Shown: positions 12,001 to 18,000 of the stretch, piece after piece
Layout: each line of letters opens with the position of its first letter
Numbering within the stretch: the stretch's first letter is position 1
From: an uncultured Bacilli bacterium
GTDB lineage: Bacteria; Bacillota_I; Bacilli_A; RF39; UBA660
Assembly (NCBI GenBank): GCA_944331915.1
Contig: CALVIR010000002.1
Location: 7,149 to 71,148, forward strand
Direction of reading: 5' to 3'
DNA: 64,000 nt
Position numbers: made by a program

Positions 12001-15000
12001 TGGTTCATAAATCTTAAACTCTCGATATTTCCCCATTTTATAAGTTCCATTTTTTAGTTTATTGTATAAATTAACTATATTACTCTCAAGATCAATATCA
12101 AATTTTAACACCTCTAAAGAATATCTTTTTGTCTTACTAGCCCTCTCATGAGCTTCAATTAATGACTCAATAGTTAATTTATCATAAAAAGCATTTCTTA
12201 TCGTATGAGGCATGATCTAATCCAACCTCCATTAAGATTAGAAATATTTGTAATTTTCTTACTCCATGCTGTATAATTCTTAGAATTTATATATTTCTTT
12301 TTATGTGAAACTCTTATTAACACTTTAACAATTTTTAAATTTGCATCTAATTCATTCAAATAACTAAGTCTTTTCTTCTTATCAAACTCTTTTTGGGCAT
12401 AAATAATATCTTTCAAGCCAGCATAAGTAACATTTTTTATATCTTGCGCTAAAGAAAAACGCTCTGACTTTGGATATTTAAGCAAAATAGATAAAGTATA
12501 GTAAACGAGCTCTACATATTGTTTATAAATCATTAAACCTTCTAAATCATCCATAGCTCCTCCAAATTTTATCTATTCTCCTAGTATTCATTTCTTACCA
12601 ACCAAAAGAATAGTACTTCATTATTTTATTTACTAATACTGCTCGTAAAATGGAAAAAACCTCTAAGATATTTATTTTTTATTACTAAAGTAATAACTTA
12701 AATAATTTTTATATCATAGTCCTCATCACGAGGCGGAACGAACCATTGTTGTTACTACCACCTGTGTTGTTATTGTTGAAATAAAATACACCAGCAATAC
12801 TACCACCAGAATTATAGTTACCGCCGCGCAAAAACCAAAAAGTAATTAAGTTTCTCCCATCTATAACTTAGCATAAATTTACAAAAGTTACAACAAAAAA
12901 ACTACTCTTCTAGCATTCATTTCCTACTAACCAAAAGAATAGTACCTCATTAGTTTTATTTACTAATACTGCTTGTAAAATGGAAAAAACCTCTAAGATA
13001 TTTGTTTTTTATTACCAAAGTAATAACTCAAATAATTATTATATCATAGTCCTTATCACAAGATGGAACGAACCATTGTTGTTACCACCATTGTTGACAT
13101 CAAAATCGAACATGCCACCATGAGTACCAGCTATATGCGAACCGCCGCGCAAAAACTAAAAGTTTAAAGTTTTTCCCTCTAAAAAAGTAGCACAAAAATA
13201 ACAAAAGTTACAAGCAATTTAGTATTAATAAATTAAATGTTATCTAAACTCTTTTTATTTATACAAAAAACCGCATATAATGGCACAGATTTAATATTAT
13301 TCTTAAAACCAAAGTTTTTAGATGACAATCTAATTCCATATTTAGGGTTAAACTCCTTCATATAATTATTTAAACTACGCGATTTAATATGTGTACTAGT
13401 TTTTACCTCCACAGGAATTATCAAACCATTTTCAGACTGTAATATAAAATCTAATTCACTATCATATTCATTTTTCCAATAATTAAGATTTAAATTATTA
13501 TATATCAAAGAATCTGCAACATAATTTTCTGTAAGCATTCCTATCATCGTCTCATTAACCGCTTCTCTATTTTTAATTAAATATATTGGAAACTGACTTA
13601 GATTTGTAAGTAAACCCACATCATTCATATATAATTTAAAAGAATCTAGTTCCTCATACATTTTTAATGGTAAACCTATCTTAACTTTAACACATTTATT
13701 AACTATACCAGCACTTTCAAGCCTATTAATTGAATCACCAAATATAGTACTTGTACCACCTTTTTGAACTAGCTTATATTGAAATTTTTTATTATCTTTA
13801 GCAAGTTGAACTGGTATTGAGTCAAATGCTGCAATTATTTTAGGAGCATAAGTTGGTTCAGCATATTTTGTAATATCATTTTTATATGATTCAAGAATAT
13901 TTTTTTGATAATCAATCGCCTTTATAGTTGAATTAGAATTTATAAATTCTTTTACAACCTCAGGCATACCACCAACAGACAAATAATCATAATATAATTC
14001 CAAAGCTTTTTTATGAATTAAATCAGGCATAGCTTCATTTGTATTATAACATTCTTTAATCTTATTAATTAGTAAAGTATTATTAGTATTAATAAGAAAC
14101 TCTTCAAATGACAATGGATAAATCGTAAGAAAATCAACCTTTCCAACAGGAAAAGAAGATTCATTCTTATTAATATGAACTCCAAGCAAACTACCTGCTC
14201 CAATCACATAATATTCAGGTGCTTCTTCACAAAAGTATTTTAATGATGTTAAAGCTCTTGTATTTTTTTGTATTTCATCAAAGAATATTAATGTTTTTTC
14301 CTTTTCAATAACTCTACCAAATGCAATTTCCAAGTTTTTAATAATATATTGTGGAGTTATATTTTCATCAATCATCTTCCCGATAAGATCATTAGTTTCA
14401 AAATTCACATATATTACATCATCAAAATATTCCTTACCAAATTCTTTTACAAGATAAGTTTTTCCCACCTGTCTAGCACCATAAACTAATAGTGGCTTTC
14501 TATTTTTACTATTTTTCCATGCAATTAAATCCTTCATCACTTTTCTTTCCATACCTATCACCTATACACATTGCAAACTATAACTCCAAAAAAATCAATA
14601 AAAAACATACTTTTTCAGAGTTATAGACGTAAAAGTATTCTTCTAGTATTCATCCCTTACTAACCAGAAGAATAGTACCTCACTAGTTTATTTACCAGTA
14701 TAACTTGTAAAATGGAAAAAACCTCTAAGATATTTATTTTTTATTACTATCGTAATAACTTAAATAATTACTATATAATAGTACTCATCACGAGGCGGAA
14801 CGAACCATTAGTGTTACTACCACCAGTAACATTGTTGTTACTAAAATAGAACACACCTGCATTAGCGGAACCAGAATTAATGTTACCGCCGCGCACAAAC
14901 TAAAAGTTTCCAGTCTTTCCCTCTCAAAATTATCACATAATTTTAAAAAGTACAACAAAAAACTATCCTTCTAGTATTCGGTTTCTACTAACCAGAAGAA

Positions 15001-18000
15001 TAGTACCTCATTAGTTTTATTTACTAATACTGCTTGTAAAATGGAAAAAACCTCTAAGATATTTATTTTTTATCACTATCGTAATAACTTAAATAATTAT
15101 CATATCATAGTACTCATCACGAGGCGGAACGAATTGTTGATGTTACCACCAGCATTGTTATAACTGAAGTTGAACACACCAGCATTAGTGGTATTGTTAT
15201 AGTTACCGCCGCGCCCAAACCAAAAAAGTTTTAAGTTCTTCCCACAACAAAAATAACATAAAATAAGATAAAAATCAAAAAAAGGCGAATAACTAAATCG
15301 TTTCGCCCTATGACTTTTGATTTTCGCCCAAATTAACTACTAACCATCATCATATATTTTAGTTTACTTTACAGTAGGAATTAGATCTCTAGGATAAAAA
15401 TTTTTTATTATATAACATAACAACTTAAATCTTACATATATCGTAGTCGCACTCATCACGAGGCGGAACGAACCGCTCTCAAAAACAGAGCAAAAAAAAA
15501 GACATCATCACACCCTCAGAGAAAACGCAAGCAACCGCCGCGCACAAACCGAAATGTCAAACAATCAACCTCGCTAGAACAATGAATATCACCAAATGGC
15601 AATATCACAAATGACCTAATCCCTATCATCAAATGATGACAATACTATTTTACAAAAGAAAAATATTAAATAGCAAATCCAATTTTTTCCAGCAAAATAG
15701 AGTATATCAAAATGTTTGACAGCAAAATATATTTCAAATTCAAAAAACAAAAAAAAATATAATCGCCGCGGCGCAAAAAAGAGGGCGCCGCGGCTCATAC
15801 GCGAATAATTTGACAATATCTTTCTAACTCTATTTTTACCATCTTATTTTGAACAGTGCAGAAGAGTTTAGTCCTTACGGACTAGTCGCGCTCATCACGA
15901 GGCGGAACGAACCGTAAGTGCTAGCACCACCGAGAGAGCTAGCAGCGCTGAAGTAGAACACACCCGCATAAGTGGCAGAGTAATAGCCACCGCCGCGCAC
16001 AAACCATGGATACTCAGCACTTATCATGTTCTGTGCATCACTATACCATCCTGCGGTCTCACTTAAACCATGACTTAAACACTCACTTCCATTACATGCT
16101 TCTTTTATATTATCACTTGTATATTTATCATAATATTTTGCTTCAGGCATTTCTGTAAATCCGGAACTACCTATCGTATCATTGTAATTACCCATTACAT
16201 ATTCCCATGCTCCTCCACTCATATCATATACTCCATATATCGTTCCTGTGGTACTTGCTCCTACTCCTCTTCCTATCAATCCATTTTCATCTCTTACATT
16301 ATTATCATACTTATATTGACATCCATAATCTGTATTTGCATTAGAAGGTGATCCATAACTACATCCTGTTATATATTGATCACTCTTGTTCTGATATACC
16401 TCTTTATTAGCTCCTTTGAAATTCTCATTTCCTAATTTTCCATATCGACTTTGTGATAAATATGCTACAACTGCCCACTCACTATTCTTCATCGCATGAG
16501 AATTCATACTTTCACTAAAACCATATCTATTTCCTGTTGCACTTACCTTCGTCGCTACAGTATGTATATTACTTACATTTATATTTCTCCAACTCGTTAC
16601 ATTTGGTTTTATCATCGGATCTAAGCTTGTGTTATTGCTTCCTCCATAACTAGCAGAAGGATCACTACTACTTGTTTCAAACTTTCCTACCCATATTCCA
16701 CTTAACTCTTCTCCATCATAAGTAAACGCATCTGGAGTCCGATAGTTCTTTGGCGTTTCTGTTGCTATATATTTTGCATTTCCTGTATCTTTTTCATCAA
16801 CACCTATAAACTTAATATCTATCTCTCCTGGCCTTGATAATGTAGGAGTTGTATCTAAATATATTCCTTTTTTACCATAATAACTGGAACCTCCATTTTC
16901 ACTACCAATTGTATAACTATATCTTGGAATCCATACCCACATTGTTTCTATATCATCCATCTCAATTGTTGTTCCAACTGCTGCACTTTGGTATTCTGCT
17001 AACTTATCACTTTTTACTGTTACAGCATTAGCCCATATTCCCATATCATAATTATACCAATTATTATCTATATCTGTTTTTACCCAGTTATATCCATCAT
17101 GTTTTACTGCTATCATATTACTATCCATTACTGGAGCATTTACCTTATCTGTTCCTTGCTCAAAATCTGCATCTGCTACTTGTTGTGACGCAAAAACTTT
17201 TAGTTGACCTAAAAATACTTTACCCATAGATTCCGTAGTAGCATTTATATTAAGCCAAACTCTAAGCTCACACTCTATCTCTTCATCAGCATTAATTATT
17301 CCATAACTCATTATATATGAATCAGATAATGTTCCTGTAAATGTTCTATCTCCCATTTTTAATTCATATCTTACATCTCTACCATCTAAAAGTTCACATG
17401 CTCCACCATCAGTGGTTTGACAATTACTTAAAGCTTCTTCATCATCTACTAATGATAACGTAAAATATAAAGGAATAGTACTATTATTTTTTAATGAAAA
17501 TGTATATGGTTCTCCTTGTCTACCTTCATCATCATAAGTTGGAATTGTATTTACCAACTGTATCCCTTCATTAGTTTCATTTAAAACAAGTTCGATATCT
17601 CCTACTACTATCTGTACATCTTTTTCACCGTAAATGATTGTATTTAACCAAGCATAAGAAATACCTACTACTACAATTAAAAGTATTACACTAAGAATAA
17701 TTATAACTTTCTTTTTATTATTCTTAATTGTATCCATAATTTTTGTCATTTATTTTTATCTACCTCCCTATATTACCAAATTATTCTAATCTCATTATAT
17801 CATTTTTAACAAAATATGGAAGAAAAATGTCAAAATTTAATATTTATTAATTAACAGAATGTTATTTTCATATAATGCTATTCTTCTAGTATTCGTCTTC
17901 TACTAACTAGAAGAATAGTACTTCATTAGTTTTATTTACTAATACTGCTCGTAAAAAGGAAAAAACCTCTAAGATAAATATTTTTTATTACTATCGTAAT

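Follow-up and report, generated by a model that had tools for sequence, protein, structure and literature searches.

Antigenic variation in pilE/pilS of Neisseria and vlsE of Borrelia arises by gene conversion: non-expressed, partial coding cassettes with constant flanks are copied into one expression site. Diversity-generating retroelements (DGRs) are understood as one template acting on a fixed framework, so that loop length and all non-adenine positions are unchangeable. Here, we analyze a DGR that appears to join cassette-based antigenic variation and retroelement hypermutation, two strategies thought to be separate. It lies in a 64,000-nt stretch of DNA from an uncultured Bacilli bacterium (assembly GCA_944331915.1, contig CALVIR010000002.1, positions 7,149 to 71,148 of the forward strand; this whole stretch is called the window). 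One complex of reverse transcriptase (RT) and the accessory protein Avd appears to use a library of template repeats (TRs) for one landing site, the variable repeat (VR) of a target gene, which would add a combinatorial layer above point mutation. From the sequence comparisons below, we consider it very probable that the one active VR draws on an archive of alternative template cassettes instead of a single TR.

The closest described DGR is that of Bordetella phage BPP-1 (mtd-VR, avd, TR, brt). Both elements combine an RT with Avd, show adenine-only differences between TR and VR, and have a target gene whose 3' end contains the VR; they also share a GC-rich, constant 3' end resembling the initiation of mutagenic homing (IMH) sequence, a hairpin just past the VR, and, 3' of the TR, a structured RNA (PMC3240598; PMC5737381). 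In BPP-1, the hairpin just 3' of the VR is needed for efficient homing, and hairpin plus IMH suffice for retargeting the system (PMC3240598). With its RT, its Avd, adenine-only TR/VR mismatches, a VR (15891-15998) at the 3' end of an open reading frame (ORF; 15875-17749), an IMH-like end, and a hairpin, the element in the window is a DGR. It departs from the canonical one-TR architecture. BPP-1 has one TR, between avd and brt, whereas here five to six separate TR-RNA units lie around the target gene (nine or more in relatives). Each unit has its own promoter-like box and leader-tail closing helix, and at least three (cassettes G, D, and A) have templated the same VR, altering its length and framework.

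Surveyed DGRs with at least two TRs or with many VRs resemble this locus in having several TR-like repeats near one RT (PMC11661182, PMC6642488, PMC5758913). The surveys treat multiple TRs as separate TR-VR pairs or as overlaps to remove (PMC11661182, PMC6642488, PMC4891356), or as different strains (PMC4891356), and template arrays are not described in PMC5758913, PMC8144416, or the 2024 gut DGR preprint. Our full-text literature searches returned no description of alternative TRs switching at one VR, of a cassette array, or of an adenine-poor cassette. Survey pipelines that discard VRs matched by several TRs probably hide more such cases.

An earlier note, made from the window sequence alone, had described an array of TR-like cassettes with shared anchors, and its account of their composition held up. 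Seven units (cassettes A, B, C, D, E, and G and the VR) have the anchors CGCGGCGG and TCGTTCCGCCTCGTGATGAG in common. The 20-nt 3' anchor TCGTTCCGCCTCGTGATGAG occurs in six exact copies in the window, all on the minus strand, and GCGCGGCGG in seven, with none of either expected from shuffled sequences. Core lengths match the codon counts assigned to G, D, A, C, and B, and the 3' anchor of B carries four substitutions (Table 1). The cassette peptides are rich in asparagine (10 residues in G, 10 in D, 9 in A, and 8 in C, versus 0 in the VR). A, B, C, D, and G all possess a ~170-nt 3' tail of one kind and a GGGA(A/G)AA(A/G)C leader, a normal cassette being a unit of ~285 nt. Cassette G is the cognate TR of the window VR, with every mismatch on a TR adenine (15/15; chance ~6e-10).

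Related strains bore out the further suggestion that cassettes can write the single local VR and alter its length and scaffold, at least for three of them: VRs of the G, D, and A types were all found at the same site. Many metagenome contigs encode RT, Avd, and GGACT proteins identical to those of the window (18 contigs for the RT). G-type VRs occur in L001 (14/14 mismatches at adenines) and L012 (15/15). At the same position, L002, L003/L017, L005, and L007 carry a D-type VR with a 72-nt core, two codons shorter, in a target protein of 622 aa; all mismatches are again at D adenines (17/17, 14/14, 16/16, and 10/10, respectively). A-type VRs are found in L058 (12/12 mismatches at adenines of its avd-proximal cassette) and L059 (14/14 versus window A). 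The chance of such adenine-only patterns is about 1e-8 to 1e-10 for each. A codon-aware test, which scores whether each residue is reachable from the cassette codon by adenine changes only, assigned 14 alleles of the same gene to G (eight alleles, one of which fits the L058 G variant), D (four: P0124, P0126, P0130, and P0134), or A (two: P0133 and P0143), with 0 incompatible residues in all 14.

Outside the VR, these strains share a nearly clonal background. The window and L001 agree at every base for 6.2 kb upstream of the VR and for 9.6 kb downstream; their 11 differences are all confined to the VR. The window and the D-type L002 are identical over ~17 kb except for the VR and 11 substitutions in the tail of E, and both genomes carry both G and D. 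Among G-, D-, and A-type strains in general, the arrays, the RT, and the flanks are otherwise identical or nearly so. Adenine-only matches on such a background indicate that all three cassettes, G, D, and A, have templated the same VR and that the switch was recent. Two other explanations of particular VRs were considered and rejected. P0127 looked like a D/G mosaic from partial cDNA integration; the G variant of its strain starts AAC, and the VR fits that variant at 14/14 adenine sites. Misassembly was rejected as the source of D- and E-type VRs because the shared anchors span no more than 9 and 20-31 nt, and because the same VR states were recovered from independent samples as well as from a long-read circular metagenome-assembled genome (MAG). 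Cassette content itself differs by strain: L009 and L018 have an "H" cassette in place of C, and cassette G starts TAAC instead of TGGC in L058 and L060.

The arrangement extends across a clade. A scan of one genome per species with a 19-nt anchor returned 37 loci, nearly all from gut Bacilli MAGs (Candidatus Onthousia species, other Bacilli, or "Tenericutes"). Their arrays have four to seven exact-anchor matches spaced 310-350 nt apart, and a relaxed finder located up to nine cassettes in one 8-kb locus. VRs that match a cassette within the array at adenines recur there: the VR of L021 with the second array cassette (17/17 mismatches at adenines), those of L043 and L053 with the third (15/15 and 16/16), and that of L038 with the sixth (7/8). 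In two more species, several scaffold types were found inside one gene. In L038, group II intron RNA domains (RF02005, 138.8 bits; RF00029, 52.6 bits) overlap the cassette-array stretch at 1240-3125.

What distinguishes the VR from the cassettes is a hairpin with a GTAA loop directly 3' of it (Table 1). In the clade, this hairpin follows every VR with a long ORF and follows no cassette; the cassettes run on instead into GACTATGATAT, the first helix of the tail. It appears to mark the VR as the putative recipient site. A metagenome scan with the VR-plus-hairpin pattern gave only one extra contig. The TAA stop codon of the target gene (15875-15877) lies within the GTAA loop, and the loop sequence must therefore satisfy both roles. 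At the other end, the codon before the VR anchor (15999-16000) differs by strain between GTG (Val) and TTG (Leu), i.e., GGTTTGT or GGTTTTT. Cassettes G and A have the T form in their 5' flank, which suggests that cDNA integration may sometimes reach a few bases past the 5' anchor.

Conservation and covariation suggest that every normal cassette (A, C, D, and G, as well as B in strains where it is intact) is a ~285-nt DGR RNA gene in its own right. We aligned 72 distinct upstream regions from the window and related genomes and found a conserved TTGTAT-like box, followed after ~14 nt by TATGTTAAT, an extended -10 of the form TGnTAnnnT, and ~7 nt later by the leader GGGAAAAAC. The leader is complementary to GUUUUUUCC in the tail. 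Across 55 distinct cassettes, leaders pair with their own partners at 10.25 of 11 positions versus 9.28 when shuffled (maximum 9.76 in 2000 shuffles), and compensated variants occur, for example, GGGAAGGTCTA with AGGATCTTTCC. Beyond this helix, the tail holds three more. For 61 tails and 29 pairs, 90.3% of cells are paired, compared with 37-57% when the partners are slid, and 16 of the 29 pairs show compensatory changes on both sides, a number reached by 0/500 shuffles. The terminal hairpin of the tail is followed by a T-run in cassettes D and B; the tail of A has no T-run after it and continues into avd. Dozens of interchangeable RNAs with one scaffold and visible covariation would constitute a natural test of what a DGR RNA requires.

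The tails resemble RT-14, one of the RT-1 to RT-19 motifs that occur near RT genes, among which RT-10 is the TR-RT spacer of BPP-1 (PMC5737381). The D and A tails align over the full RT-14 model (Rfam RF02921); an outer helix, an inner hairpin, and a single-stranded AGAGnUUUUUUCC are common to both, as is a terminal hairpin with a GUUAGUAG...CGAAUAC internal loop. In each case, the structured RNA lies near an RT gene and its helices are backed by covariation. Here, however, the motif recurs once per cassette, not once beside the RT. We rejected membership in RT-14, since the scores of the D and A tails (35.0 and 33.6 bits) fall short of the gathering score of 48.1, and a search of seven related loci gave no RT-14 match at E 0.01.

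Cassette E is of another kind. The earlier note had grouped it with the others, whose anchors it shares. E (15452-15543) has a core that is T-rich, adenine-poor (~11% A), and 62 nt long, which is not a multiple of three; the core is non-coding in the VR frame, where it would place a stop codon. This core sequence is conserved across species, and in the array E invariably comes first after the target gene. A conserved box of its own, GATGATAGGGATTAA(A/G)TCA, lies ~76-80 nt upstream of its 5' anchor, and its tail is a variant: the E leader GGGATTAGGTC pairs 11/11 with GATCTAATTCC in this tail, a fully compensated form of the normal leader-tail helix. The 3' flank of E is VR-like (GTGCGACTA), giving E the longest flank identity with the VR site of all cassettes. 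E-type VRs were found in 5 of about 20 species representatives. The VR core is identical to the local E in L020, L023, L034 (the long-read circular MAG), and L049, and near-identical in L026, with one A-to-G change and a change in T-run length. The target ORF with an E-type VR is intact in L020, L023, and L026 (584-586 codons) and open to the locus edge in L034 (478 codons) and L049 (23 codons); all five genes end in a truncated or scrambled C-terminus.

We infer from these comparisons RT-mediated switching, separate transcription of the cassettes, and one RT for all of them. In the proposed mechanism, leader-tail pairing would close a domain around the TR, and the RT-14-like tail would substitute for the Bordetella phage TR-RT spacer. 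A single RT-Avd complex could load any cassette RNA. The TR would be copied with misincorporation opposite adenines, and the mutagenized cDNA would replace the VR via the two shared anchors. The VR would be the sole recipient because only the VR has the downstream GTAA-loop hairpin, and since the anchors are common to all cassettes, homing from another cassette would overwrite the whole VR. The choice of cassette would set VR length (24, 26, or 27 codons) and the invariant framework residues, and later rounds from the same cassette would vary the adenine-templated positions. Such a system bears on engineered DGR mutagenesis, in which several templates might be used per target.

Several observations weigh against a template archive read out by the RT. 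First, the strains compared are metagenome assemblies, in which within-population mixtures are collapsed. Second, among about 20 distinct VRs, there is no C-type or B-type VR, so C and B may not be active. Third, a generic promoter and terminator scan of this AT-rich DNA found no enrichment (33 sigma-70 sites versus 34.8 expected), so support for the promoters proposed in the earlier note comes from conservation of the box across the 72 cassettes. Fourth, no adenine is changed in the E-type VRs of L020, L023, L034, and L049 (0/7, 0/12, 0/10, and 0/10, respectively). A non-mutagenic transfer from cassette to VR thus exists, and it could also explain the scaffold switches.

This last point bears on the alternative that survives best, in which switching occurs at the DNA level by short-homology gene conversion via the anchors, and the RT adds adenine mutagenesis afterward from the newly cognate cassette. 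As in the pilS and vls systems, a cassette archive would feed one expression site, here a hairpin-marked VR, and the occupying type differs by strain. In favor of conversion, E-type VRs in L020, L023, L034, and L049 are identical to the local E despite 7-12 adenines, and E has the longest flank homology with the VR site. E itself is installed in the VR without adenine mutagenesis, whether by recombination or by a faithful reverse-transcription route. Only E-type VRs, however, are faithful copies. The copies of G, D, and A are adenine-mutagenized, and not one unmutated G-, D-, or A-type VR was present among about 20 VRs, all of which carry 10-17 adenine-site changes. Moreover, the cassettes here are RNA genes, as judged above, tied to RT-Avd, unlike those of pilS and vls; the anchors, at only 9 and 20 nt, are short for RecA-type conversion; and retrohoming requires exactly what is found at the VR, shared anchors and a recipient hairpin (PMC3240598). 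We regard DNA-level switching as unlikely, though not negligible.

Alternatively, the extra cassettes could be cognate TRs of remote VRs, with local D- and A-type VRs as rare accidents. Paralogous target genes do exist at other loci: P0003 lies beside a 264-aa RT fragment and P0005 near polC; P0156, which has a paralogue's N-terminus, carries an A'-type VR; and in some relatives, such as L044, another contig holds a second VR with a hairpin. Yet the VRs of P0003 and P0005 have no hairpin, do not differ from sample to sample, and show neither cassette nor tail in their vicinity; in P0005, the anchors are decayed as well. On these grounds we rejected both as active remote VRs, and they look like inactive fossils. 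The one-remote-VR-per-cassette option raised in the earlier note is also not supported by the species' representative MAG, in which the array, G, and a single fossil VR are the sole sites with the anchor. Of the alleles sampled for the local gene, about half have a D- or A-type VR. The fossil-like state of the paralogues argues that remote VRs do not explain the array in this species (no complete genome was compared), and we hold this alternative to be very improbable. P0003 is located at L061 6098-8866 (also in L062), near spoIIGA/sigE, a separate locus that looks like the remnant of a second DGR.

That the extra cassettes are inert TR duplicates with no present function, as the visible decay of B in this strain and the lack of VRs matching C and B might suggest, is scarcely credible: D and A have matching adenine-mutagenized VRs, which contradicts inertness for these two, 60-70 cassettes from many species retain the tails, leaders, and promoter-like boxes, with compensatory changes, and arrays are kept clade-wide.

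Beyond an archive of templates for one VR, E raises the possibility that DGR loci contain a built-in, reversible off state. We tentatively suggest a two-tier system, a reading we consider possible but doubtful, in which the normal cassettes switch framework and length and undergo adenine hypermutation, and E acts as a blank that gives a reversible OFF state, a form of DGR-linked phase variation. Faithful installation of E would truncate or scramble the binding domain and keep both anchors and the hairpin. This would fit the first position of E, its VR-like flanks, its compensated leader-tail helix, and the unmutated E-type VRs in otherwise intact genes. Separately, the D-type VR of P0131, an allele of the window target, has a frameshift that leads to a 615-aa protein with a scrambled C-terminus; null target alleles therefore arise also without E. 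The 11 substitutions that separate the window from L002 in the E tail cluster at 15384-15450, within its first ~70 nt, and are mostly G or C to T or A. They could stem from local hypermutation, from recombination with another E allele, or from a mixed-strain artifact at 6x coverage. E tails differ in L012, too.

The locus is chromosomal, in a gut Bacilli species near Candidatus Onthousia faecavium, and adjoins rpsL, rpsG, fusA, and tuf. All DGR features are on the minus strand of the window, in the transcription order cassette G, target gene with VR, E, D, C, an AAA_14/DUF4143 ATPase gene, B, A, avd, and RT (Table 1).

Table 1. Positions of the DGR and associated features in the window
Feature	Coordinates	Strand	Basis or detail
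DGR reverse transcriptase, 354 aa	11149..12213	-	Pfam RVT_1, E 1e-17
avd accessory gene, 118 aa, overlaps RT start	12198..12554	-	Pfam bAvd 77.3 bits vs cutoff 40
Cassette A, 78-nt core, structured tail	12573..12858	-	Leader at 12858; 5' anchor 12821-12829; 3' anchor 12722-12741
Cassette B, 69-nt core, decayed in this strain	12902..13177	-	4 substitutions in 3' anchor
AAA_14/DUF4143 ATPase gene inside array	13233..14561	-	Pfam matches
Cassette C, 81-nt core, anchors and tail intact	14634..14921	-	Sequence mapping
Cassette D, 72-nt core	14963..15243	-	Sequence mapping
Cassette E, 62-nt adenine-poor non-coding core, same anchors	15283..15623	-	Unit ends in terminator
GC-rich hairpin GCCGCGGCGC...GCGCCGCGGC, 10-nt loop, then T-run	15740..15794	-	Read from sequence
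Hairpin TAGTCC-GTAA-GGACTA directly 3' of VR	15869..15884	-	Read from sequence and clade comparison
VR, G-type in window, 78-nt core, bounded by shared anchors	15891..15998	-	15/15 mismatches to G on adenines
Target gene, 624 aa, N-terminal membrane anchor, C-terminal variable domain	15875..17749	-	ORF
Cassette G, cognate TR of this strain's VR, upstream of target gene	17878..18164	-	Sequence mapping

The RT contains the motifs LPIGNYTSQ and YMDD; the motif-4 sequence IGxxxSQ is a signature of DGR-type RTs. Its closest solved structure is 8ub7_A (E 4e-48), which we take to be the Bordetella phage bRT. Avd scored 79.8 bits against NCBIfam DivGenRetAVD, just under the cutoff of 80. The target protein has more than 3800 homologues. 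Its variable domain gave a weak FGE-sulfatase match (E 0.003, below cutoff), a PDB sequence search with the C-terminal domain returned no match, and the AlphaFold model of the protein was unusable (pLDDT 37). An intact, 75-nt version of cassette B is present in other strains. The GC-rich hairpin at 15740..15794 is likely the terminator of the target gene; its 10-nt loop kept it out of the generic terminator scan. A search of the whole locus against phage records gave only ~130 nt of RT similarity to RTs of crAss-like phages, and the RT protein found no relatives among viral contigs.

The ATPase gene inside the array is probably not a core part of the element. Arrays of other species are contiguous without it, the interruption being specific to this species. 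Similar ATPase genes lie near the target gene or a paralogue at other loci (L020 4092-5366 and L063 3876-5150). On the same strand 3' of the RT, every strain has genes for a Peptidase_C39_2/C70-like protein (430 aa) and a thymidylate-synthase-like protein (249 aa) at 9058-11128, which might be co-transcribed with avd and RT. Divergent beside cassette G, at 18274-20583, is a gene pair that encodes Amidoligase_2 (609 aa) and GGACT/AIG2-like (155 aa) proteins; L058 and L060 encode a shorter amidoligase of 466 aa. Farther away, at 56500-60000 on the minus strand, are four to five tandem paralogous genes of ~200 aa (repeat families D2, D6, and D7), unrelated to the DGR.

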